A stretch of 64,000 nucleotides of DNA from Gammaproteobacteria bacterium (GTDB taxonomy: Bacteria > Pseudomonadota > Gammaproteobacteria > JAADGQ01). A model generated the notes under the pieces. That model ran no database searches. It saw nothing but the letters and a program-made list of their open reading frames with translations, and was not told the DNA's origin. Below are positions 21,582 to 39,469 of this stretch, piece after piece (position 1 is the stretch's first letter; each line of letters starts with the position of its first letter). The stretch is from the NCBI GenBank assembly GCA_021648145.1, contig JAKITI010000004.1, positions 63,848-127,847 of the forward strand, given 5' to 3'. The translations under genes were made by a program, and so were the position numbers.

Positions 21582-22298
21582 TCAAGAAATAGTGCAAAAA
21601 TCTTTCATATATTTTCGGCTGACGGGGATGATCGCACCGCTAACGGTGTGAATCTCTCCTAAACCATTTTCCTGCTTTGTGATCATTTTTATACAGTCTG
21701 GATCGACTAAATGTTGTCGGTAACATCGTACTAATGGAGTATTTTCTTCAAGCACTTTTAAAGAAAGGTCGGTATGAAATTCCTCGCAATTTTTGCCCGT
21801 AACAATATGCACTCCCGTAGTAGTAGTGGAGAATGCACGACAGACATCTTTGACATTGATGAGATAGTTGCAACCATCTTTGTAGCAGGGAATAAATTGC
21901 ATGGTTGTAGATAAGATTTTTACGATATCAGGCTGTGGTCGATAGTCCTCTTTAAGACGCTCTAATGTGATGTTTAAACGATCTGTTTTTACAGGTTTTA
22001 ATAAAAAGTCGATAGCATTTTTTTCAAATGCTTCGATTGCATATTCAGGGTAAGCGGTGACAAAAACAATGCGTGGCATGTCATCTTTATCCAGCATGCG
22101 AAGCATCTCTATGCCTGATATTTTGGGCATGATGATATCAAGAAAAACAACATTCGGGCGCTTGCTGTTGATCTCTTTAATTGCTTCGAATGCATTGGCG
22201 CATTTACCCACGATGTTAAAATCAGGGTCTGCCCCGATCTTTTCTTCCAGATCATCACGCGCGTGAGGTTCATCATCAACAATGAGGGCATTAATCAT
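21582..22298 (-). CDS. LytTR-family response regulator (receiver plus LytTR DNA-binding domain)
   Basis: 238 aa with a receiver domain (ALIVDDEPHARDDL...VVFLDIIMP) and a C-terminal LytTR domain. It overlaps the lytS stop by 4 nt. Confidence 0.85.
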   Translation of the reverse strand: MINALIVDDEPHARDDLEEKIGADPDFNIVGKCANAFEAIKEINSKRPNVVFLDIIMPKISGIEMLRMLDKDDMPRIVFVTAYPEYAIEAFEKNAIDFLLKPVKTDRLNITLERLKEDYRPQPDIVKILSTTMQFIPCYKDGCNYLINVKDVCRAFSTTTTGVHIVTGKNCEEFHTDLSLKVLEENTPLVRCYRQHLVDPDCIKMITKQENGLGEIHTVSGAIIPVSRKYMKDFCTIS

Positions 22299-22301
22299 CT
22301 T

Positions 22302-24110
22302 TTACTCCTTATTATATGGCAGGCGGATATTGACTTGAGTCCACTGCTCCGGTTCACATGAAATAGTAATTCCATAATCCTGACCGTAGCGTATTTTAAT
22401 CCGTTCATCTATTTTCAGTCCGATTCCATGCGGGCTGTTTTTTATATACAGACCCGCATTATCTTCGACGGTCAAGGTCAGCTTATCACTATTTGTCGCA
22501 CAGCTGATCTTGATTACGCCTGTGCCAAGTAATTCACTTGTGCCATGTTTTATGGCATTTTCAACAATCGGTTGTAACGTAAAAACAGGAATCACTTGAT
22601 CAAATAAATACTCTGGAATATCAATATGAATTTGCAAGCGGTCTTCAAAACGTGCTTTTTCTATTGCGAGATAAGATTTGATATGTTCCAGCTCGGATCG
22701 AAGCGTGATGGTATCATCAGATGTTTCCAGGCTTTTTCTGAAAAAATCCGATAAATGATGCAATAAATCACGCGCTCTTTCGGGTTGTTTTTTTGTGATA
22801 TGGCTGATGGTTGCGAGTGCATTATAGAGGAAATGCGGATTGACTTGCGCAGTTAATAGCTTGTATTGGTCTTCAATGCGTAATTCTCGTTGGCGTTCAT
22901 AACGACCGGCGAGAATCTTGCTGGACAGAAGCTCAGCAATATTTTCACCCAGCTTTCTATTAATGTTACGAAATAGTTTATTTTTAGGTTCATATAGCCT
23001 GATGGTACCAATCACCTGATTGTAAACATCATCTTTGAGAGGAATAATCAATACCGAACCCAATCCACAGAACGCTTCGCGTCTGCACTGATAGTTTCGC
23101 CTGAATATCACTTTATTATTCTTAATTGCCTCCAGAGTATCTTCTGAAGCAATGAGTGAGCCGGGTATGTGATGATCATCCCCCAAGCCAGTAAATGCGA
23201 GTAGCCTTTTTTTATCGGTAATGGCGACAGCACCTACTTGGGTTTCCTGTTGTATGATTTCAGTAATTTGCTTGCTGGATTCTGGGTTAAATCGAGTAAA
23301 TATGATGCTTGCGGTTTTCTCTGCAATTTGCCATGCCGTCGTGCTGCTGCGGAGTGTGTCACAAGCACGTTTTTGTTCCTTGATCATATACATGATCAAT
23401 GCTACACCTGCAGAGTTAGCAATTAACATCGGCGGCGCAATCTCCTTAATCAAAACCCAAGTCTTGGATATTTCGTTAAAAAATAGTCCGAATAGTAAAA
23501 TAATTAACATGTGTCCCAGCACGGCAATCAGGGTGACTAAAAAGACAGCTCTAGGAGAAAATAGACGCTCCATTCGGCCGCGATGTGATAAGTAGTAGTG
23601 TACAAAACCTGCTAGAAGTCCTTCGAATGTGGTGGCCACCGCACAGGCGATATCAATATAGTGAATAGGGTCCGTCGGTGATGACATGTACCAAACTCGA
23701 TGAATTCCCCCAGTGAACCCGACAAAAAAGCCAACGACAGGGCCACCCAATAGTCCACCGAGTACCGCCCCAATGGCTCTGGTGTTGGCTATTGCACTCT
23801 CTGATTCAAATGATTGCTCGCTTAGAAATGTTCCCAGAATACAAAAACCGGAAAATACCAGATAGATAACAATTTTATCTGGTAGAGAGAGCGTGTTGTT
23901 GACCAGGTCAGTAAACACAGGTGTTTTGGTGAATAAATAAGCTAAACCTAAAAACACGAGAACGTGCAGCAATAAAGGAGTGATGTGTTCTAAAAATAGA
24001 AGGTCTTGCATGAGTGTTTCGCTGTTATAAAAATATTTATACGACAGATTAACACAAGAAAAAAATCCACTCAGATGATATGGCTGCCACTTAGAAGCTA
24101 TATCAACCAC
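22302..24110 (-). CDS. LytS/BtsS-type sensor histidine kinase (5TM-Lyt plus GAF plus His_kinase plus HATPase)
   Basis: It has an N-terminal multi-TM 5TMR-LYT region, a GAF-like middle, the His_kinase motif NPHFLYNALATISHI and an ATPase domain. The real start is probably MQDLLFLEHI near 24011. The track start at 24110 would overlap the regulatory box. Confidence 0.85.
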   Translation of the reverse strand: MVDIASKWQPYHLSGFFSCVNLSYKYFYNSETLMQDLLFLEHITPLLLHVLVFLGLAYLFTKTPVFTDLVNNTLSLPDKIVIYLVFSGFCILGTFLSEQSFESESAIANTRAIGAVLGGLLGGPVVGFFVGFTGGIHRVWYMSSPTDPIHYIDIACAVATTFEGLLAGFVHYYLSHRGRMERLFSPRAVFLVTLIAVLGHMLIILLFGLFFNEISKTWVLIKEIAPPMLIANSAGVALIMYMIKEQKRACDTLRSSTTAWQIAEKTASIIFTRFNPESSKQITEIIQQETQVGAVAITDKKRLLAFTGLGDDHHIPGSLIASEDTLEAIKNNKVIFRRNYQCRREAFCGLGSVLIIPLKDDVYNQVIGTIRLYEPKNKLFRNINRKLGENIAELLSSKILAGRYERQRELRIEDQYKLLTAQVNPHFLYNALATISHITKKQPERARDLLHHLSDFFRKSLETSDDTITLRSELEHIKSYLAIEKARFEDRLQIHIDIPEYLFDQVIPVFTLQPIVENAIKHGTSELLGTGVIKISCATNSDKLTLTVEDNAGLYIKNSPHGIGLKIDERIKIRYGQDYGITISCEPEQWTQVNIRLPYNKE

Positions 24111-24112
24111 TC
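24085..24112 (+). promoter_or_regulatory. LytTR-type direct-repeat box (GCCACTTA-N12-ACCACTCA), copy 1 of a ~130-bp conserved promoter module
   Basis: It lies in the divergent lytS / lipoprotein intergenic region. The flanks aaaaatatttatacgacagattaacaca...ccactcagatg and cctgatttgt are conserved in the other copies. Confidence 0.5.
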
Positions 24113-24153
24113 ACCTGATTTGTACTTTCTCAGTAATTGATGAGCGTTATATT

Positions 24154-25089
24154 GTGGGTAAGACCAGTTGTTTGACTGTCGTGTGCGAAGTAATTTCGCT
24201 TAATTTTTTTGATAAGGGAAATGTAATGAAAAAACTATTGTGGTGTATGTTTGCTATTTTTTTAACACTATTGAGTGCGTGTGGTGGTGACGGTGTTACC
24301 GAACCCAACGAACCAAAAATTACAAGTTTTCGTGCGGATAAAAACAGCATCATAGCTGGAACAGGAGTCAACTTAACACCTATTTTTTCTGATGGTACTG
24401 GGTCCATTGATAACGGTATAGGTCAAGTTACATCTGGCATCTCTGTCTTAGTAACCCCCGACTCTACAACAAAGTACACCTTAACGGTGAAAAATTCTGA
24501 TGGAAAATCAGTAATGTCAACTACTACCGTTAGGGTTAGTGAACCACCTAACTTACTAGAAAAGCTCGCTGGAAAGGTGAGGTTTGATTATACAGTGAAC
24601 TCGTTTCTCTTTAGTACCACTGCAAATCTTTCCAGCATAGTCTTTAATGGAGAGAAGTATCTTTTTGATAGAGTAACAAGTACCGCTTGCCTCCTTTTTG
24701 AATCACCTTCATTTGAATACTTTTGTATGAAAACAAACACCTCGGGCTCAAAAGATGTTTTTGTATTTGACATGACATCTGACACAAAAGGGGCGGGGCA
24801 ATATGAGTTTTGTCGAAGCAACGAATCAGACGAAGAGTGTGCTTTAGGGATTATGAGTCCAGATGGAGACGTTAAAGTCACCGTAATAAGTAGCTCACCT
24901 AATAGACAGTTAGAGTTAGTGATACCAACAAATTTTGAGTATATCTATAATGATGTAGAGATATACAAGCAAGGCAGTGATATGGACTCTTACTCAGAGA
25001 CTACTGTGCTGAATAGTGATAGTAAGCAAGTTGATACATTAAGTGAACGTATTGAAGCACTTCAACAAATAATCAGAGGTCATTTATGA
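24154..25089 (+). CDS. lipoprotein of unknown function
   Basis: The likely start is MKKLLWCMFAIFLTLLSACGGDG at 24226, with a lipobox LLSAC. The protein is Ser/Thr-rich and looks secreted. Confidence 0.55.
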   Translation: MGKTSCLTVVCEVISLNFFDKGNVMKKLLWCMFAIFLTLLSACGGDGVTEPNEPKITSFRADKNSIIAGTGVNLTPIFSDGTGSIDNGIGQVTSGISVLVTPDSTTKYTLTVKNSDGKSVMSTTTVRVSEPPNLLEKLAGKVRFDYTVNSFLFSTTANLSSIVFNGEKYLFDRVTSTACLLFESPSFEYFCMKTNTSGSKDVFVFDMTSDTKGAGQYEFCRSNESDEECALGIMSPDGDVKVTVISSSPNRQLELVIPTNFEYIYNDVEIYKQGSDMDSYSETTVLNSDSKQVDTLSERIEALQQIIRGHL

Positions 25090-25410: not shown

Positions 25411-25614
25411 GCTCCTGTGCGGGCAATCCATACCGAACATGAATTTACTTGCCTTATGCTATTGTTTTCATTGCCAATAATTTTCGCTTCACTTGAGCGG
25501 CTCACAATTACAAGCCTCTGGCTTTGCCTGAGGAATTTGGCTTGTAGATATGACAACTATAATGACACAGGGGATGGATGCAGCTCTTGTAAAATCCATT
25601 TAGCACGAGTGACG

Positions 25615-25642
25615 ACCACTTAGAAGCTATATCAACCACTCA
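25615..25642 (+). promoter_or_regulatory. LytTR-type direct-repeat box (ACCACTTA-N12-ACCACTCA), copy 2
   Basis: About 155 bp upstream of the S8 peptidase start. It is followed by the conserved module tail cctagtttgtgcttttccagtcatag...tattgtttgtaaagg. Confidence 0.5.
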
Positions 25643-25766
25643 CCTAGTTTGTGCTTTTCCAGTCATAGTGAAGACTCTATTGTTTGTAAAGGCTCAGAGT
25701 TACATTCAATGCGTAGCGATGGCAAATCTGGTATTAATAGCCAGCGACTTCAATATGATATGAAAA

Positions 25767-29940: not shown

Positions 29941-30063
29941 TTCATTTTTAATCAGCCTAAATCTGAGGTTGGATGCACCGCAGACAGCGAACCAAACTTA
30001 TGAAACAGGTGACGTGGTATTGGTTTCAGAGAATTGGTGGCAAGGTGATTTTATGTGGATAGA
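29941..30063 (+). pseudogene. diverged duplicate of the 3' end of the 27653..28285 gene (gene fragment)
   Basis: About 80% identical to 28165..28285. It would encode ...TANQTYETGDVVLVSENWWQ, compare ...TANRIYETGDVVLASPDWWQ. Together with the original it flanks the AGCS gene as a direct repeat. Confidence 0.45.
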
Positions 30064-30101
30064 TTAACAAAGTAAAAAAACCCCACTCAGATGGAATAAC
30101 T

Positions 30102-30129
30102 GCCACTTAGAAGCTATATCAACCACTCA
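30102..30129 (+). promoter_or_regulatory. LytTR-type direct-repeat box (GCCACTTA-N12-ACCACTCA), copy 3
   Basis: About 140 bp upstream of the 30271 ORF. The full module is present: ccccactcagatggaataactgccacttagaagctatatcaaccactcacctgatttgtgcttttccagtcatga.... Confidence 0.5.
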
Positions 30130-30270
30130 CCTGATTTGTGCTTTTCCAGTCATGATTAAGACGATATTGTTTGTAAAGGATCATGGTTACATTCAATACG
30201 AAACAACAAAAAATTAGTTAAGAAGAGCATAAGTGATCAATATAAAACCGATAATGCACCCGAAATAATA

Positions 30271-31480: not shown

Positions 31481-31774
31481 ATGCATGTCACACTGGAAAA
31501 ACTACAATCCTATAAAAGTGAAATTTCTCGTATTGCTGCAAACTATCATGCGAATAATATAAGGGTCTTTGGCTCTGTCGTTCGAGGGGAGTCCTATGAA
31601 AATAGTGACATTGATCTATTGGTTACTTTTCAATCTGGGGCAAGCCTGCTTGATCAGGCGGGTTTGATCAGCGAACTAGAAGGCATGCTTGGTACTACTG
31701 TAGATGTTGTCAGTGACCGCGCTCTTAATCGTCACCTGAGCACAAAAATTTTAAATGAAGCACAACCGCTATGA
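31481..31774 (+). CDS. mntA: MntA-type nucleotidyltransferase antitoxin (type VII TA)
   Basis: 97 aa with the minimal nucleotidyltransferase motif RVFGSVVRGESYENSDIDLLV. Its stop overlaps the downstream HEPN gene start (ATGA). Confidence 0.75.
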   Translation: MHVTLEKLQSYKSEISRIAANYHANNIRVFGSVVRGESYENSDIDLLVTFQSGASLLDQAGLISELEGMLGTTVDVVSDRALNRHLSTKILNEAQPL

Positions 31775-32098
31775 AGCAGCGGAAAATATATGCTCTAGCA
31801 ATTTATGATTGTATTCAACGCATTCATGAGTATACAGACGGTTATGATGTTGATGCTTTTACAAAGGATTACAAAACGCAAGATGCTGTTGTACGAAACC
31901 TTGAAATCATCGGGCAAGCAGTTAAGGACTATGGTGTTGACCATCTAATTGACCATGCTCCAAATGTCCCTTGGTCACAAGTCGCAGGAATGAGAAATAT
32001 CATCGCTCATGAATATCTTGGTGATCGTGTGGGAAACAGTAAAATGGAATCTTCCTCAGTTGGAAAGTGCTATCATAGAGCTCACTCAGCATGAGTGA
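31771..32098 (+). pseudogene. hepT: HepT-type HEPN toxin (DUF86) with an apparent frameshift near its 3' end
   Basis: It has the HEPN motif RNIIAHEY. After ...YLGDRV the annotated frame reads GNSKMESSSVGKCYHRAHSA*. The +1 frame reads IVWETVKWNLPQLESAIIELTQHE*, which is the canonical DUF86 C-terminus. Confidence 0.6.
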
Positions 32099-32218
32099 AG
32101 AATTTTAGTTGTTTTTTATATTCGTAATATTTTATTTCTCGCTTGTTTTCTTCGCTGTATAAAAATATTTATACGACAGATTAACACAGGAAAAAAACCC
32201 CACTCAGATGGAATAACT

Positions 32219-32246
32219 GCCACTTATAAGCTATATCAACCACTCA
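32219..32246 (+). promoter_or_regulatory. LytTR-type direct-repeat box (GCCACTTA-N12-ACCACTCA), copy 4
   Basis: About 115 bp upstream of the SPFH gene. The full ~130-bp module is present, including the aaaaatatttatacgacagattaacaca 5' arm. Confidence 0.5.
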
Positions 32247-32360
32247 TTTGATTTGTGCTTTTCCAGTCATGATGAAGACGATATTGTTTGTAAAGGATCA
32301 TGGTTATATTCAATACGAAGACTTGATTCCTTTGTTTTGTCTTTATAGGAGGAGGAAAAG

Positions 32361-33419
32361 ATGAGTAAATATTTGTTTGTAATGGGTGCTTTTTTATTGG
32401 CCCACCTGATTGTCATTTCTCCTGAGAGAGGAATGGATATGGCAAAGGCTCTGGATATTGATGTCAGTGTGCTCACATACGCCTTGTGGGCGATTATTCT
32501 GGTCTTATTGATCAAATTTGCTTTCTCTTTACCTGGAATATACGTAAACATTGCTGAGGGAAATGTCGGTGTTGTCTCGCGTTTTAGTCGCTTCTCAAGA
32601 ACGCTAAGCCCGGGGTTTAACTTTATCTATCCGTGGGAGAAAGTTGAAAATTTGTCGATCCAGTGTCGTGCCATCGAGCTGGAGTTCCAGGCGATTACGC
32701 TAGACCAAGCCAGTGTCTATTTTAACTGTGCCATCATTTTTTCGGTTGTTGGTACAGATAAGGAAATGGTGCGCAGGGCTGTCTATTCGTTTGGGTCAGA
32801 AAGTGAGTTTGAGTTATCTGTCCAGCGTTTGCTCGAAGATGAAACCCGTGCCTATGTGGCCACCAGATGCCAGGCAGATATGATAGGAATATCCCAGGAT
32901 GTTGTCGTAAAAATCAAAACAAATGTCGAGAAAAATATCGAAAAATGGGGGTATAAGGTAGAGGATCTCCGTTATGCAAACCTTCATTTTGATGAGGTGG
33001 TTACAAAGTCAATGGCAAGGGTTGTTGCTGCCGTCAATGAAAGGGATGCCGCAGAAAATGAAGGCCAGGCACTACTTATTCGCAAGGTCAAATTAGCCGA
33101 GGCTGAAGGGGAATTTGTCCGCATTCAGGCCGAAGCGGAACGAACCGCATGGAAGTTGCGAGGGCAAGGCTTGTCTGATTTTCGAAAAGAGGTTGCCAAA
33201 GGTATCCACGTTGCAGTGGATGAGATGACAACAGCAGGGCTTGACCCTAACTTCCTTCTGTTTTTTATGTACACGGAAACATTGAAACACATCGCAGAAA
33301 ACTCAAATGCGGGTAGTACTATTTTTGTGGACAACAGTCCTTCTGTACCTAATACCATCATGCAGCAGATGTCTGCATTTTATAAAAACGAACCCATTTC
33401 AGAGAAAACTGAAAGTTAA
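32361..33419 (+). CDS. SPFH/band-7 (stomatin/prohibitin-like) membrane protein
   Basis: 352 aa with an N-terminal TM helix, an SPFH core (NVGVVSRFSRFSRTLSPGFNFIYPWEKVENLSIQ) and a coiled-coil segment. Confidence 0.8.
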   Translation: MSKYLFVMGAFLLAHLIVISPERGMDMAKALDIDVSVLTYALWAIILVLLIKFAFSLPGIYVNIAEGNVGVVSRFSRFSRTLSPGFNFIYPWEKVENLSIQCRAIELEFQAITLDQASVYFNCAIIFSVVGTDKEMVRRAVYSFGSESEFELSVQRLLEDETRAYVATRCQADMIGISQDVVVKIKTNVEKNIEKWGYKVEDLRYANLHFDEVVTKSMARVVAAVNERDAAENEGQALLIRKVKLAEAEGEFVRIQAEAERTAWKLRGQGLSDFRKEVAKGIHVAVDEMTTAGLDPNFLLFFMYTETLKHIAENSNAGSTIFVDNSPSVPNTIMQQMSAFYKNEPISEKTES

Positions 33420-33543
33420 CAGAGAAAGAGCAGAAATAGGGGTCAAACATTGACCCCTTGCCCCCAGGTTTTAATGAAGACTCTATTCAAGGCATTGTTG
33501 AGTATAACAGTGGGCAATATAAGTTTAGTGAAGGAGAGTATAA

Positions 33544-33693
33544 ATGAACACAATATTATTGGGCATATTTAAACTTACAGGAATAGGAGGACTTTTGCTC
33601 ATAATTATGGTGCTTTGTATAGTGGGTGTTATTAATAGAACTGAAGGTAAAAATAGTAAAGGGGGAGGTTGGGATGATGGCTGTGGCGGCTGA
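33544..33693 (+). CDS. unannotated small single-TM peptide (49 aa), copy A
   Basis: MNTILLGIFKLTGIGGLLLIIMVLCIVGVINRTEGKNSKGGGWDDGCGG*. It has an RBS-like GAAGGAGAG upstream. Its conserved 5' leader is shared with copy B at 36761. It is below the 60-aa ORF-track cutoff. Confidence 0.45.
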   Translation: MNTILLGIFKLTGIGGLLLIIMVLCIVGVINRTEGKNSKGGGWDDGCGG

Positions 33694-33802
33694 CTTTAGT
33701 GTTAGGTGTGACGTTCTCGTATTCAGAAAGCATTTGAGTTGCGTTTGTAAAAATGTGCCGATAAATTAACACAGGGAAAAATCCCACTCAGATGGAATAA
33801 CT

Positions 33803-33830
33803 ACCACTTAGAAGATATATCAACCACTCA
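33803..33830 (+). promoter_or_regulatory. LytTR-type direct-repeat box (ACCACTTA-N12-ACCACTCA), copy 5
   Basis: About 98 bp upstream of the pspA-like ATG at 33928. Confidence 0.5.
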
Positions 33831-33927
33831 CCTGATTTGTGCTTTTCTAGCCGCGTTCAAGCGATTACTGTTTACCCTTGTTTCCACGTTCATGTGTGGA
33901 AGTACATATCTCAAACAGGAGAGCAAA

Positions 33928-34606
33928 CATGAGTGAAACTTTAACAGGCCGTGTTGGGCGTATTATCAGCGGCAGTGTCAATACACTGGTCGATGCTATT
34001 GAAAACGCGACACCCGAGATGGTCATGGAACAAGCGGTTCGTGAAATTGATAGCTCTGTAGATGATGTGCGCACCGAACTAGGCCGTATGATGGCGAAGA
34101 AGCATCTTGCCAATAAACGTCTTATGGAAGAGAGTAGAAAACATAAGGAGTTAGCCGAAAAAACCAACCTCGCTATAGAGCAAGGTCGGGATGATTTGGC
34201 CGAAGCAGCCATTGCACAGCAGTTAGATATTGAAGCGCAAATTCCGATACTGGAAAACGCCATTGCAGATGCCGCCAATCAGGAAAAAGAGCTGGAAGGT
34301 TATATCTTTGCGCTTCAAGCAAAAAAACGGGAGATGAAAGAGGAGCTGCAACTGTTTCATGCGGCGAAAAAAGAGGCTGCCGCGAGTCGCAATACAAATT
34401 CAACCGTGCGCACAAACTCCAATGTGCAATCTCGCGTAGAAAAAGCAACATCAGCATTTGAACGTGTGGTTGAAAACTCCACGGGTATGCCGAGTAGTCA
34501 CGGCCCTAGTGACCGAAAAACAGCCGTTCAGCTGGTGGAATTAGAGGCGCTTGCCCGCAAAAACCGCATCCAGAAACGATTAACGGCTATCAAAGAAAGG
34601 GCTTAA
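33928..34606 (+). CDS. pspA: PspA/IM30-family protein (phage-shock protein A-like, ESCRT-III fold)
   Basis: The track ORF starts at 33878. The likely start is MSETLTGRVGRIISGSVNTLVDAIE at 33928 with the RBS caggagag. The whole protein is coiled-coil and co-linear with PspA. Confidence 0.85.
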
Positions 34607-34633
34607 CAAAACTCCTGACGGGAGCGGATTTAT

Positions 34634-34894
34634 ATGTCAATTGATGAAACCGACGCAGTATCTGAAGAAACCTTTATTGGACGAGTGGCCAAGATCACCT
34701 TAGGGAAAGCTGAGATTAGCAGTCCAGCACAAGCAAAGTTAAAAGATGAGCATGGCCAGATCCATTACATCATGGTTGAGCCTGACATGCAGAATGAAAT
34801 TTTTGAAACCGGTCGTTTAGTTATTTTAGTCAGCAGGGTTGGTGCTATTTTTAAAGCGATTCCCAACGACAAATCGGTTCTTTTTGATGAATAA
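34634..34894 (+). CDS. hypothetical soluble protein co-operonic with pspA and flotillin
   Basis: 86 aa with no TM helix. The gaps are tight: 27 nt after pspA and 17 nt before the flotillin gene. Confidence 0.45.
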   Translation: MSIDETDAVSEETFIGRVAKITLGKAEISSPAQAKLKDEHGQIHYIMVEPDMQNEIFETGRLVILVSRVGAIFKAIPNDKSVLFDE

Positions 34895-34911
34895 AAAAGG
34901 AAGGAATACCA

Positions 34912-36669
34912 ATGAATTTTGATTTAACGAATATACAGATTATTACAGTAGCCTTCATCACTTCTCTGATTGTACTTGGGTTGATATGTAGCCGTTTATA
35001 TAGGCGGGCTTCTAAACAAGTCTCTTTTGTGCGAACCGGATTTCGTGGCCAAAAGGTGATTAAAAATGGCGGTTGCCTCGTCTATCCCGTGCTGCATGAA
35101 ATCATTCCCGTTAACATGAATACGTTACGCTTGGAGGTTCGGCGGTCAAATGAACAAGCTTTAATTACACGAGACCGTATGCGTGTTGATGTGGCCGCTG
35201 AATTTTACGTACGAGTAAAACCAACAGAAGATGCCATTGGCGATGCGGCTCAAACTTTGGGCATGAAAACCATGAAACCCGAACTATTAAAACAGTTGAT
35301 TGAAGGTAAATTTGTTGATGCCCTACGTGCCGTTGCCGCCGAGATGGCGATGGAAGAACTGCATGAACAACGGGTCGATTTTGTTCAAAAAGTTCAACAA
35401 GCCGTCTCAGAAGATTTATTGAAAAATGGCTTGGAACTAGAGTCCGTTTCACTCACAGGTTTAGACCAAACCAGTAAAGAGTTCCTTAACCCTGACAATG
35501 TTTTTGATGCGGAGGGTTTAACCAAGCTAACAGAGGCAATTGAAAGTCGTCGCAAGAAGCGTAATGACATTGAGCAAGACACTGAAGTGGCCGTTGCCAA
35601 TAAAAATCTCGACGCTGAGCGTAACAAATTAGAAATTCAACGAGAACAAGAATACGCTCGACTAGAACAAGAGCAGGAAATTGAAATTCGTCGCGCCGCA
35701 CAAACGGCAGAAATTTCACGTGAACGAGCAGAGAAACAACGTGATGCTGAGCAAGCGCAAATTAATGCACAACAACAAGTAGAATCTTCAAAAATTGCAA
35801 CTGAGCGTGCTATTGAAGAGCAGCGTATCGATAAAGATCGTCAGCTAAAAGAAAACGAAATCACTAAGACTAAGGCCGTAGAAACGGCGGAAATAGAACG
35901 CCTCAAAACAGTCGAATTAGCTGAGCAAGACCGCGCTATCGCCATTGCAGAAAAATCGAAAGAAAAATCTGTCAGTGAAGCCACTGCCGACAAAGCGCGG
36001 GCCGAGGCGGTAAAAGCTGAAGAAATGGTTGTCACCGTTCGTGAAACGGAACAAGCTGAGCGAGCAAAAGCCGTTGAACTGGTTCTTGCAAGTCAACAAG
36101 CCGAGCGCCAGGCGATCTCTATCAAAGTCGCTGCCGAGGCAGAAAAAATGGCGGCAGAGGATCAAGCCGAAGCCGTGGCCATTTTAGCCAATGCAGAAGC
36201 ACAAAAGCTGCGCATTACCGCTGAAGGCTGTGCCGATGCGGAAAAACTAAAAGCTGAAGCGGCTGAAAAAACATATGCAGTCGATGCTGAAGGCCAACAC
36301 GCCCTCAATGAGTCACGCAACATTCTCAGCGCAGAACAGATCGCGATGCAAATACGCATGGCCTTGATAGAGCAACTACCGCAAATCATCCGTGAAAGCG
36401 TTAAGCCCATGGAGCAAATTGACGGTATTAAAATTATTCAAGTTGATGGTTTAAATGGCGGTTCAAATGGATCTGGAGAAACAGCAACCAATAATAGTAA
36501 TGGTGGAAGCTTGGCCGATCAGTTAGTCAATAGTGCCTTGAAATACCGCAGCCAGGCACCGTTGGTTGATTCGCTATTATCCGACATTGGCTTGGACGTG
36601 GGTGATATTAATGGCATGAGCAGAATGCTTCACAATAAGCCCGAAACAGAGAGTAAAAGAGGGGTTTAA
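34912..36669 (+). CDS. flotillin-family protein (SPFH domain plus long EA-rich coiled coil, YqiK/FloT-like)
   Basis: 585 aa with an N-terminal TM helix, an SPFH domain, and about 250 aa of Glu/Ala/Arg/Gln-rich coiled coil (EQEIEIRRAAQTAEISRERAEKQRDAEQAQ...) followed by a flotillin C-terminal region. Confidence 0.85.
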   Translation: MNFDLTNIQIITVAFITSLIVLGLICSRLYRRASKQVSFVRTGFRGQKVIKNGGCLVYPVLHEIIPVNMNTLRLEVRRSNEQALITRDRMRVDVAAEFYVRVKPTEDAIGDAAQTLGMKTMKPELLKQLIEGKFVDALRAVAAEMAMEELHEQRVDFVQKVQQAVSEDLLKNGLELESVSLTGLDQTSKEFLNPDNVFDAEGLTKLTEAIESRRKKRNDIEQDTEVAVANKNLDAERNKLEIQREQEYARLEQEQEIEIRRAAQTAEISRERAEKQRDAEQAQINAQQQVESSKIATERAIEEQRIDKDRQLKENEITKTKAVETAEIERLKTVELAEQDRAIAIAEKSKEKSVSEATADKARAEAVKAEEMVVTVRETEQAERAKAVELVLASQQAERQAISIKVAAEAEKMAAEDQAEAVAILANAEAQKLRITAEGCADAEKLKAEAAEKTYAVDAEGQHALNESRNILSAEQIAMQIRMALIEQLPQIIRESVKPMEQIDGIKIIQVDGLNGGSNGSGETATNNSNGGSLADQLVNSALKYRSQAPLVDSLLSDIGLDVGDINGMSRMLHNKPETESKRGV

Positions 36670-36760
36670 TTATTAAAATATATAGGTTTTGATGAAGACT
36701 CTATTCAGGGTGTTGTTGAGTATAACAATGGGCAATATAAATTAGTGAAGGAGAGTATAA

Positions 36761-36931
36761 ATGAACACAATATTATTGGGCATATTTAGTGTCGTTATGA
36801 TAGTGGTCGTAGTGAACATATTCGAACTTACAGGAATAGGAGGACTTTTGCTCATAATTATGGTGCTTGGTATAGTGGGTGTTATTAATAGAACTGAAGG
36901 TAAAAATAGTAAAGGGGAGAGGTTGGGATGA
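36761..36931 (+). CDS. unannotated small TM peptide, copy B (56 aa, with a 1-nt indel near the 3' end relative to copy A)
   Basis: MNTILLGIFSVVMIVVVVNIFELTGIGGLLLIIMVLGIVGVINRTEGKNSKGERLG*. Its leader matches copy A: gatgaagactctattca.ggc.ttgttgagtataaca.tgggcaatataa.tt.agtgaaggagagtataaatgaacac. Confidence 0.4.
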   Translation: MNTILLGIFSVVMIVVVVNIFELTGIGGLLLIIMVLGIVGVINRTEGKNSKGERLG

Positions 36932-36995
36932 TGGCTATAGTGGTTGATTTTTTATGCAACGAGCAGGGTGAATAAACAGCCCCTTTGGAGGATCC

Positions 36996-38747
36996 ATGGA
37001 TTCTGATTATTTTAGTCAAATGCTCTATGCCTTCCCAGGGATTTCCGTACTGGCACCCTGGTTCAACAGCCTACTCATCATAGATATTTTACAGCAGATG
37101 GCCCTGCTATTCGTTGTTGCCTTCCTGTTTAGCCGTTCAGGAGCCTTCGGGCTGTTGGTCAAGGATTCACTTCGGACTCGTGACTGGCTGTTGCTCTACC
37201 TGATTTTTTTTGCTATCTCAGCTATGGGCTCTGTATTGGCTTCCAATGTTCCACTGACGCCAGGCGGCGATGACTGGACTCAGGTGGATACTCGTTCCAT
37301 CGGCGCAGTGCTAGCGGGGTTTTTGGGTGGTCCCTTGCTTGGAACTGCGGTTGGCTTTACCGCTGGCCTCTATCGGTGGAGCCTGGGCGGGCCTACTGCT
37401 ATGGCGGGTTTCATAGGAACCACATTAGTCGGGCTTATAGCAGGTCTGGTCTACATGTTTTTTCTGAAAAAAAATCAGGAGGTACGTTTTGGTTGGAAAA
37501 TTGCGGTAGTCGCCACCTGCGTGGGTGAGCTGATCATGAAGGTCTTGGTGCTGCTTACCGTTCAACCATTCGATAAAGCACTGGCTCTTATTCAGATTAC
37601 CACCGTTCCCAGTTTAATTGGCAATAGTATCGGAGCCGCCTTGTTCGTTACCATATTGAATGATAAAGAGCGTCTTGGTGTCTTGCATACCACCACCGCA
37701 CTGCGTATGGCCAAGCGTTTAGTTGATGTTCTGAAATATGGCTTCAATAAAAGTGCTGCAAGGGCAATCGTCAACATCATCCGCGGAGAGACCCAGATTG
37801 CAACAGTAGCGATCACTGATCATACCAATAAAGTCATGGCAATAACCGGAGTCGGAGCCGATCATCATCACGTCGGTGATGAAATTGTCGCTGACCTGGT
37901 TCAAAACGCCATTGACCAACAGCGGGTTATCTTTATAAATGGTTCAACCGACCGGCTCCATTGTGCAACTTCTGCCAACTGCCCATTACATTCTGCGCTC
38001 ATCGCTCCACTTATTGTGGAGGGAAACGTACTGGGTGTATTGTTGCTGATTGAACCAAAGCGACGTTTTTTCCCCAAGTTGAACCGTGCTTTGGGCGTGG
38101 GCGTTGCCGAGCTTTTATCCGAGCAGATGCAATTAGCTATGTATCAAGAGCAACTGGCCAGCGCAAAACACAAGCTTCTTATTGCACAGATAAATCCACA
38201 TTTTTTATCCAATGCATTGAACACCATCTCTGCCATTGTTCGAACTGATACAGCTCGCGGCAGAGAGCTGTTGACCAAGCTGGCGTTCCTGATGCGCAAG
38301 AGCATAAAATATGAAAATGAAATCAGCACCCTAGAGGAAGAGTTGGAACATATGGATGCACATCTCAGTATCGATCTGGCTCGTTATGGCGACAAACTTC
38401 GAATAGAAAAAAATATCGAACCGAAACTGATGAATGCACTACTTCCCAGTTTTGTTCTTCAGCCATTGGTAGAAAATGCAGTCAAACATGGAACATCTCG
38501 CCTATTGATCCCTGGCATTATCCAGATACGCGCCTATCAAACAGGTGATGGATTGATTAAAATTGAGGTCAAAGACAATGCAGGACAATATCAGCCTAAA
38601 TTATCAGCGACTCAAGGCCTTGGCATGAAAAACGTCGAAGGAAGAATCAAAACGCTATTTGGTCGCCAATATGGATTAAGTATCGACTGTTCACCGAACC
38701 AGCACACCAGCGTTACAATTACCATACCATTCAGGGATCAGCTATGA
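36996..38747 (+). CDS. LytS/BtsS-type sensor histidine kinase, second paralog
   Basis: 583 aa with the same architecture as the 22302..24110 protein and the His_kinase motif NPHFLSNALNTISAIV. Confidence 0.85.
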   Translation: MDSDYFSQMLYAFPGISVLAPWFNSLLIIDILQQMALLFVVAFLFSRSGAFGLLVKDSLRTRDWLLLYLIFFAISAMGSVLASNVPLTPGGDDWTQVDTRSIGAVLAGFLGGPLLGTAVGFTAGLYRWSLGGPTAMAGFIGTTLVGLIAGLVYMFFLKKNQEVRFGWKIAVVATCVGELIMKVLVLLTVQPFDKALALIQITTVPSLIGNSIGAALFVTILNDKERLGVLHTTTALRMAKRLVDVLKYGFNKSAARAIVNIIRGETQIATVAITDHTNKVMAITGVGADHHHVGDEIVADLVQNAIDQQRVIFINGSTDRLHCATSANCPLHSALIAPLIVEGNVLGVLLLIEPKRRFFPKLNRALGVGVAELLSEQMQLAMYQEQLASAKHKLLIAQINPHFLSNALNTISAIVRTDTARGRELLTKLAFLMRKSIKYENEISTLEEELEHMDAHLSIDLARYGDKLRIEKNIEPKLMNALLPSFVLQPLVENAVKHGTSRLLIPGIIQIRAYQTGDGLIKIEVKDNAGQYQPKLSATQGLGMKNVEGRIKTLFGRQYGLSIDCSPNQHTSVTITIPFRDQL

Positions 38748-39469
38748 CCATAAACGTTATTCTCATAGACGATGAAACTTTGGCGCAAGACGAGCTGGCA
38801 TATCTTTTGGAACGGCACGATGACTTTCGCATCGTTGCCCGATGTGAAGATGTTTTCTCTGCCCTGCGTAAAATTCGCGAACACAAACCAGATGCTATTT
38901 TTTTGGACATTATCATGCCCGGACAAGATGGTTTTACGCTGCTCGACTATATGGCGCCGGAGGAACACCACCCTCACGTCGTGGTTGCCACTGGAGGGGA
39001 AAGTGATTTTGCAGTGCGTGCCTATGCAGAGGGTGTGCTGGATTATCTAACAAAACCCATCGAAGAGGAGCGTTTTGATAAAGCGATAGAACGAATTAGG
39101 AGTCAGGTTTCAGACCCAAGTATCGAAGTACTCCCTTATCCAGATCGCATACTCGAAATTATTCCGTGTATTTTCAATCATCGAATAAAATTTATTAAAC
39201 CTAAAGAGATAGAATTTGTACGGTCTGATAGCCGTGGTATTTACGTCATATGTGCAGAAAAAGATTTTTATACCGAATTAACATTAGCTACTTTCGAGAC
39301 TAAAACCACACTCATTCGTTGTCATCGTCAACACATGATAAATCTTGTACATATTGACGAACTTATTCCACTGGAAAATGGTTTAGCAGAAATTAAAACA
39401 ATATCTGGGCATCGCGTTCCGGTCAGTCGTCATTATCTCAAATGTTTAAAGGAAAAATTAGGGGTGTAA
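38744..39469 (+). CDS. LytTR-family response regulator, second paralog
   Basis: 241 aa with a receiver domain (VILIDDETLAQDEL...AIFLDIIMP) plus a LytTR domain. It has a 4-nt overlap with lytS2. Confidence 0.85.
   Translation: MTINVILIDDETLAQDELAYLLERHDDFRIVARCEDVFSALRKIREHKPDAIFLDIIMPGQDGFTLLDYMAPEEHHPHVVVATGGESDFAVRAYAEGVLDYLTKPIEEERFDKAIERIRSQVSDPSIEVLPYPDRILEIIPCIFNHRIKFIKPKEIEFVRSDSRGIYVICAEKDFYTELTLATFETKTTLIRCHRQHMINLVHIDELIPLENGLAEIKTISGHRVPVSRHYLKCLKEKLGV

Follow-up and report, generated by a model that had tools for sequence, protein, structure and literature searches.

In a 64,000-nucleotide stretch of DNA from a hydrothermal-vent gammaproteobacterium (GCA_021648145.1, contig JAKITI010000004.1, positions 63,848 to 127,847; hereafter the window), two paralogous open reading frames (ORFs), called here pepA and pepB, encode small hydrophobic peptides and lie immediately 3' of an SPFH-family gene and of a flotillin gene, respectively. 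Tentatively, and with somewhat less than even confidence, they are interpreted here as a genuine but very young, lineage-restricted and duplicated small membrane-peptide gene, which forms the last cistron of two membrane-stress operons whose promoters carry BtsR boxes. The peptide belongs to no known family; a small hydrophobic orphan ORF at the end of an operon is a familiar kind of object.

The two ORFs, which the initial annotation had described as paralogs of about 50 residues with a hydrophobic helix, were both located. Each is part of a cassette of ~230 bp that is present twice in the window, and a hairpin precedes the first copy:

33466-33697, plus strand: pep cassette A, made up of a 78-nt leader, the Shine-Dalgarno (SD) sequence GAAGGAGAG at 33530-33538, and the pepA ORF
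33544-33693, plus strand: pepA ORF, 49 residues (MNTILLGIFKLTGIGGLLLIIMVLCIVGVINRTEGKNSKGGGWDDGCGG), with a hydrophobic helix over approximately residues 2-37 and then a Gly-rich acidic tail
36684-36951, plus strand: pep cassette B, made up of a leader, an SD sequence at 36746-36754, the pepB ORF, and, in decayed form, what is left of the ancestral C-terminal coding sequence
36761-36931, plus strand: pepB ORF, 56 residues, with the C-terminal end ...NSKGERLG
33438-33458, plus strand: GC-rich 9-bp hairpin 3' of the SPFH stop codon, with a fold of -15.2 kcal/mol (z = -2.0)

The repeat is far beyond chance, as the 43-nt core of the cassette occurs exactly twice in the window versus 0.00 expected occurrences. 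The leaders of copies A and B (78 and 77 nt) are ~90% identical, and in both of them GAAGGAGAG stands 5 nt upstream of the ATG, with AGGAG 7 nt upstream, in agreement with the conserved leader of ~80 bp and the strong ribosome-binding site reported initially. Together, the SD sequence, the ATG, and the first nine codons form a block of 47 nt that is 100% identical between the copies. Relative to pepA, pepB carries a 36-nt in-frame insertion (36789-36824) that encodes the hydrophobic stretch SVVMIVVVVNIF. The hydrophobicity of the peptides reaches a KD19 maximum of 2.76, and an AF2 model consists of a single helix over residues 2-37 followed by a 19-residue tail that is predicted to be disordered. 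The hairpin downstream of the SPFH stop codon, which has no adjacent U-tract, could be an attenuator or a stabilizer rather than a clear terminator, and no terminator was predicted downstream of the pepA or the pepB ORF.

The single-nucleotide insertion seen earlier in copy B maps to position 36918 (GGGGG to GGGGAG) and brings the stop codon forward to 36929-36931, the ancestral-frame stop being still present downstream, at 36945-36947. This frameshift is no sequencing error, since it is found in three independent assemblies, namely the window, a 99.6%-identical contig of another assembly (L001), and a JGI metagenome contig named SWIR1 (L099). Both peptides had been presented as unannotated, which is correct for pepB, missing from the protein collection, but not for pepA, whose product is in GenBank as MCF6235478.1 (hypothetical protein L3J70_03765, from a gammaproteobacterial metagenome-assembled genome, or MAG). 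Both ORFs are predicted by one gene caller. Neither the pepA entry, nor the 36-nt insertion of pepB, nor the YqiJ_OB neighbor of flotillin described below had been mentioned in the initial annotation.

Several properties of the two ORFs resemble those of protein-coding sequence. For codon usage, pepA has a log-likelihood of 0.242 bits per codon, which equals the mean of the real genes of the window and is higher than that of 98.5% of 134 comparably long spurious ORFs; pepB, at 0.148 per codon, scores above ~94% of them, and the five other reading frames have negative scores. The sole large indel between the copies, the 36-nt insertion, is in frame and hydrophobic. Differences between A and B are also distributed unevenly. 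From the SD sequence to the actual stop codon of pepB, a length of 151 nt, there are none with the L001 allele and one with the window allele, versus six in 58 nt of the leader and seven or eight in the 25 nt past the pepB stop (~30%), a contrast between the SD-to-stop stretch and its flanks that is significant by Fisher's test (p about 1e-6). Decay in pepB is thus confined to the part left untranslated by the frameshift, and the still-translated part is intact. The suggestion that copy B is degenerating therefore holds for the frameshift, which is fixed in the three assemblies, but not for the translated part, which is identical to that of A, with decay only after the new stop codon. Two non-peptide explanations of the cassette were ruled out: a conserved ORF on the opposite strand, as the minus-strand ORFs differ between the copies and have negative codon scores, and a structured non-coding RNA, as there is no Rfam match and the two cassettes fold no better than shuffled sequences (z = 0.15 and 1.32).

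A body of observations weighs against a genuine peptide gene, among them the lack of relatives. No homolog of pepA or pepB other than pepA itself was found in 5.8 billion clusters (~15 billion proteins overall), and HMMER searches without a word filter against 1.84 billion representatives likewise returned pepA as the sole match. By tblastn, the peptide is present in 0/80 flotillin loci and in 0/6 loci of the closest SPFH1 relatives (72-89% identity), where the downstream neighbor is SIR2 or a 430-residue gene; the peptide ORF is also found in 0/6 orthologous kinase loci (L090-L095, 70-81% identity), and the peptide in none of the viral contigs or the plasmid and phage collections. These searches have a limited reach into small ORFs, which protein collections cover incompletely, pepB itself being missing. 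A scan of metagenome contigs with degenerate peptide patterns yielded nothing among the matches listed and is no valid negative, because it missed VAPF01029475.1, a contig present in the collection that carries pepA. The pattern of variation also counts against it. Strains differ in pepB at 36824 (E/K) and 36869 (G/C), both changes being nonsynonymous, and there are zero synonymous differences between the copies in the identical block, which could be a gene-conversion tract, an explanation that serves as well as selection at the protein level. The E/G allele of pepB is that of the window and of the SWIR1 contig, and the K/C allele, which matches pepA, that of L001; the two alleles imply either that two nonsynonymous changes occurred rapidly or that gene conversion from pepA is still under way.

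Candidate origins of the peptides were sought among known families. In Pfam and NCBIfam searches with E values up to 10, neither peptide matched the NfeD or YqiJ OB fold (PF01957 / PF07290). A profile hidden Markov model (HMM) built from 78 YqiJ proteins gave 0.9 bits for pepA and -1.3 bits for pepB, values equaled by 2 and 63% of shuffled sequences, respectively; this non-significant score rules out a remnant of the missing three-transmembrane (3-TM) domain of YqiJ discussed below, and the peptides are, as originally stated, unlike NfeD. An origin as a remnant of a DUF2207 C-terminus is left unsupported, as the match of pepB to DUF2207_C (PF20990) has an E value of only 0.52 (10.4 bits, versus a cut-off of 33) and pepA has none; an N-terminal fragment of DUF2207 exists at the syntenic place in a related genome, L098, with no counterpart in the window or in the plasmid collection. 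An origin from a defense system or a phage was rejected, there being no PADLOC match and no match in phage, plasmid, or viral-contig sequences, and the PHROGs match to a generic 'membrane protein' (E 3e-4) is driven by the transmembrane segment. Inspection by eye also eliminated a double-glycine leader, since ELTGIGG misfits E-L-x-x-I-x-G-G and none of the window's large ORFs was seen to encode a C39-type transporter, and a lipoprotein signal, MVLC being no lipobox. Finally, short, strongly hydrophobic ORFs of any family just downstream of a flotillin gene were found in only ~2/80 loci, so that analogous small ORFs in that position form no pattern.

As had been claimed, each copy follows a gene for an SPFH-domain protein. 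The neighboring genes are the following:

32361-33419, plus strand: SPFH/Band_7 gene (SPFH1; Pfam PF01145, E 8e-24), 352 residues as the longest ORF
33929-34606, plus strand: PspA/IM30 family gene (PF04012, E 2e-19)
34634-34894, plus strand: YqiJ (NfeD-like) gene, OB fold only, 86 residues (PF07290, YqiJ_OB, E 3e-27)
34912-36669, plus strand: flotillin (YqiK-type) gene (PF15975 and PF01145)
36996-38747, plus strand: LytS/BtsS-type histidine kinase gene (5TMR-LYT, GAF, His_kinase, HATPase)
38744-39469, plus strand: LytTR response regulator gene (NCBIfam BtsR, 244.8 bits, just below the cut-off of 246)

The true start of SPFH1 may be further downstream than that of the longest ORF, its homologs having 310-360 residues. 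With a promoter-like repeat called R2, the gene order is R2, SPFH1, hairpin, pepA, R2, pspA, yqiJ(OB), flotillin, pepB, LytS/BtsS-type kinase, and LytTR regulator. The kinase gene starts 64 nt past the pepB stop codon, and no terminator was predicted in the gap. The remainder of the window is ordinary chemoautotroph chromosome, with RuBisCO and carboxysome genes, gltX, RNase R, and FtsK.

The segment 33929-36669 is the PspA-YqiJ/YuaF-flotillin operon, which is known to be conserved (PMC11237479). The same gene order is present in 65/80 related flotillin loci; PspA is encoded upstream in 65/80 and a yqiJ gene is present in 78/80. In those 78 loci, YqiJ has 178-283 residues, nearly all of the proteins being of at least 212, and includes a 3-TM domain. 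The YqiJ protein of the window is an 86-residue OB domain that lacks the 3-TM N-terminal domain, a truncation shared by L098. The NfeD-type neighbor of flotillin is thus present (34634-34894), minus its membrane part. The operon of the window differs from the published one (PMC11237479) by this truncation, by its BtsR-box promoter, and by the presence of pepB at its end. It also has a LytS/LytTR system beside it, which is the case for one of the 80 other flotillin loci, and there at a distance.

The R2 repeat heads both operons that end with a pep ORF:

~24018-24161, 25612-25716, 30053-30202, 32151-32320, and 33730-33873: five R2 copies, each preceding a gene or operon on the plus strand
32151-32320, plus strand: R2 upstream of SPFH1, with three BtsR(YehT)-like boxes at 32199-32246
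33730-33873, plus strand: R2 preceding pspA; boxes at 33783-33830

The units headed by R2 are an unknown 311-residue gene; a subtilase gene with a 230-residue gene and a Na:alanine symporter gene; a DUF4344 fragment; SPFH1; and PspA-YqiJ-flotillin. The invariant core of the repeat is CCCACTCA-N12-GCCACTTA-N12-ACCACTCA, i.e., three boxes with a 20-nt spacing. The pattern CCACTYA-N12/13-CCACTYA has nine matches, every one of them inside the five R2 copies, versus 0.01 expected. Boxes of this type also adjoin orthologous kinase-regulator pairs elsewhere (L090, L093, L098) and are found in 0/80 unrelated flotillin loci. Their arrangement closely parallels that of the YehT/BtsR site of E. coli yjiY, GCCGCTCA-N12-ACCGCTTA-N13-ACCACTCA (oligonucleotide in PMC4847170). 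R2 has the features of a BtsR/YehT-type LytTR operator, namely direct repeats of ACC[G/A]CT[C/T]A-like 8-mers ~12-13 nt apart, ahead of the candidate target genes and near a gene for a BtsR-like regulator. We read it, from this arrangement, as a putative BtsR-type operator-promoter to which the regulator would bind, and both pep-bearing operons are therefore probably members of one regulon. The five copies suggest that the local LytS/LytTR systems have a regulon whose members are clustered. A second pair of genes for a LytS-type kinase and a LytTR regulator is located at 21582-24110 on the minus strand, divergent from the R2 copy at 24018-24161. In other genomes (L086-L088, about 175-2153), a 74%-identical SPFH1 homolog is encoded directly downstream of a LytTR response regulator gene, with ACCACT-like boxes between the two; because of this arrangement, the link between SPFH and LytTR can be said to recur outside this genome.

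According to the preferred reading of pepA and pepB as a young membrane-peptide gene, the last cistrons of R2-SPFH1-pepA and of R2-pspA-yqiJ(OB)-flotillin-pepB would each bring their own strong SD sequence and start codon. Joint induction of both operons by the adjacent BtsS/BtsR-like system would follow from their having the same promoter element with three BtsR/YehT-type LytTR boxes. The peptide would insert into the inner membrane as a single helix, and its Gly-rich tail would probably face the cytoplasm, as flotillin and PspA do, because positive charges come just after the helix. The pepB peptide would have a second hydrophobic stretch and a tail shortened by the frameshift. Within the membrane, the peptide might act as an accessory or a client of the membrane-stress gene set.

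Comparison with L098 (~95% nucleotide identity) indicates that this region is prone to rearrangement. L098 shares with the window the subtilase-symporter operon and R2-pspA-yqiJ(OB)-flotillin, and between the two it has R2-headed modules that are wholly different from those of the window (5292-7221 in L098, 30053-33873 in the window). Those of L098 contain an OMP-like gene and the N-terminal DUF2207 fragment, and those of the window the DUF4344 fragment, MntA/HepT, and SPFH-pepA. As homology resumes only at 33777, inside R2, the L098 locus has no SPFH1-pepA module. The L098 contig ends within the flotillin gene and hence covers the pepA region but not the position of pepB. R2 seems to be the recombination joint between the strains, with break points inside the repeat. 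The post-SPFH position of the pep copies amounts to two cases in one genome, and the exchange of R2-bounded modules, together with many truncated genes, may mean that history explains the location of the peptides as well as function does. Just upstream of R2-SPFH lies a nucleotidyltransferase/HepT-like toxin-antitoxin pair (31481-32094), whose HepT gene differs in length between strains by 12 nt in frame (31937-31948, missing in L001). The 167-residue ORF at 30271-30774 matches the DUF4344 metallopeptidase model over the last ~75 positions of the latter only and is probably a gene fragment (DUF4344 C-terminal) behind an R2 promoter.

Such a history lends itself to the idea that pepA and pepB are non-functional ORFs that happen to have stayed open, derived from duplicated intergenic or 3'-untranslated DNA or from what remains of a larger gene for a membrane protein, in a region prone to rearrangement and with a core homogenized by gene conversion. 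We regard this as unlikely, though as a contender to be taken seriously. The ORFs are orphans without a homolog, pepB is frameshifted and has a weak match to DUF2207_C, and the identical core has no synonymous differences; modules between R2 repeats vary among ~95%-identical genomes, and truncated genes are close by (the OB-only YqiJ, the DUF4344 fragment, and the DUF2207 fragment of L098). However, the codon usage falls within the range of real genes, the perfect SD sequence stands at a suitable distance from the start codon, the indel keeps the frame and adds hydrophobic residues, and the block of identity matches the SD-to-stop interval at both ends. A parent gene was not found either, although the proteins of the source MAG are in the database, and the DUF2207_C match of pepB scores far under the cut-off and has no equivalent in pepA. 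The initial annotation had rather put forward a general class of SPFH/flotillin partner micro-proteins. Pairing of SPFH and NfeD proteins is well established (PMC2636767; for PspA-YqiJ-flotillin operons, PMC11237479), and both pep copies stand immediately 3' of SPFH-family genes, next to a YqiJ without the 3-TM domain that it has in 78/80 homologous loci. As dedicated partners, the peptides could supply in trans the membrane anchor lost by the truncated YqiJ. The peptides do resemble NfeD/YqiJ/YbbJ/YuaF proteins (e.g., in QmcA-YbbJ and YqiK-YqiJ) in being membrane proteins encoded beside an SPFH/flotillin gene, in the same operon, but NfeD-type proteins have 150-450 residues, with a C-terminal OB fold and transmembrane helices, and the peptides have neither the OB fold nor any sequence similarity and are encoded downstream, not upstream. 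The general claim is contradicted by the 80 flotillin loci and the six closest SPFH1 loci, none of which has the peptide, by L098, which has no SPFH1-pepA module, and by the lack of any database homolog; conservation of the peptide ORF, whose lack in homologous loci had been named beforehand as grounds for refuting that claim, was found in none of these loci. Adding to this the YqiJ-profile score (0.9 bits for pepA) and the two cases in one genome, which R2-mediated shuffling of modules could equally produce, we infer that the peptide is not a conserved, obligatory SPFH partner. The partnership survives, unproven, only as a lineage-specific possibility, improbable in our estimation and slightly more interesting given the truncated YqiJ. 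In a variant that we consider a long shot, an NfeD-type partner would be split, YqiJ being the soluble OB part only and the newly arisen pepA and pepB the membrane part, both co-induced with SPFH, PspA, and flotillin by the BtsS/BtsR-type sensor; if true, it would amount to the birth de novo of a component of an SPFH cage, along with a LytS-type membrane-stress regulon.

Small membrane peptides of other kinds provide two further models. MgrB, a 47-residue peptide, exerts feedback on PhoQ, and YjeT/DUF2065, of 65 residues, is encoded directly after hflC; MgrB-type regulators have the size and the architecture, a transmembrane segment plus a short tail, of the pep peptides. By analogy, the peptides could be regulators of the adjacent LytS/BtsS-type kinase that feed back on the sensor from BtsR-dependent operons. 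In keeping with this proposal, the pepB stop codon is separated from the kinase gene by 64 nt in which no terminator is predicted, both copies belong to operons with BtsR-like boxes, and the likeness to MgrB and YjeT/DUF2065 extends to the size class, the single hydrophobic helix followed by a short tail, and the place at a stress-operon end or next to a kinase gene. It is nevertheless quite improbable, as no such ORF precedes the kinase gene at the orthologous loci (L090-L095), the peptides are unrelated in sequence to MgrB, YjeT/DUF2065 (no Pfam match), or any other known regulator, and they are not conserved beside kinase or SPFH genes in relatives. Type I toxins, for their part, are typically small, hydrophobic, multicopy, and taxonomically narrow. 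The pep ORFs (49 and 56 residues) share these traits, and they share with Hok, Ldr, TisB, and Ibs a length of ~50 residues or less and conserved leaders; they adjoin membrane-repair genes, and both cassettes have weak promoter-like hexamers on the minus strand (ATAACA-17-CATAAT). A membrane-damaging peptide controlled by an antisense RNA from within the cassette is still very unlikely, given that such promoter-like sites are no commoner than in shuffled sequences (7 found versus 9.2 expected), that the leader and the mRNA are not unusually structured, that no antisense terminator is common to both copies, and that there is no Rfam or PADLOC match; in addition, and in distinction to the known toxins, the peptide ORFs are sense-oriented at the 3' ends of operons.

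The understanding of SPFH proteins is unchanged by these observations unless an interaction is demonstrated. If pepA and pepB are translated, they would offer a clear case in which a micro-protein gene of very recent origin was duplicated and recruited to the ends of membrane-stress operons, and the natural frameshift variant of pepB would help to identify the part of the peptide that matters. The wider result lies in the genomic context, as a BtsS/BtsR-like (LytS/LytTR) system appears to control the SPFH gene, the PspA-flotillin operon, the subtilase-alanine symporter operon, and others through a repeated operator-promoter module.

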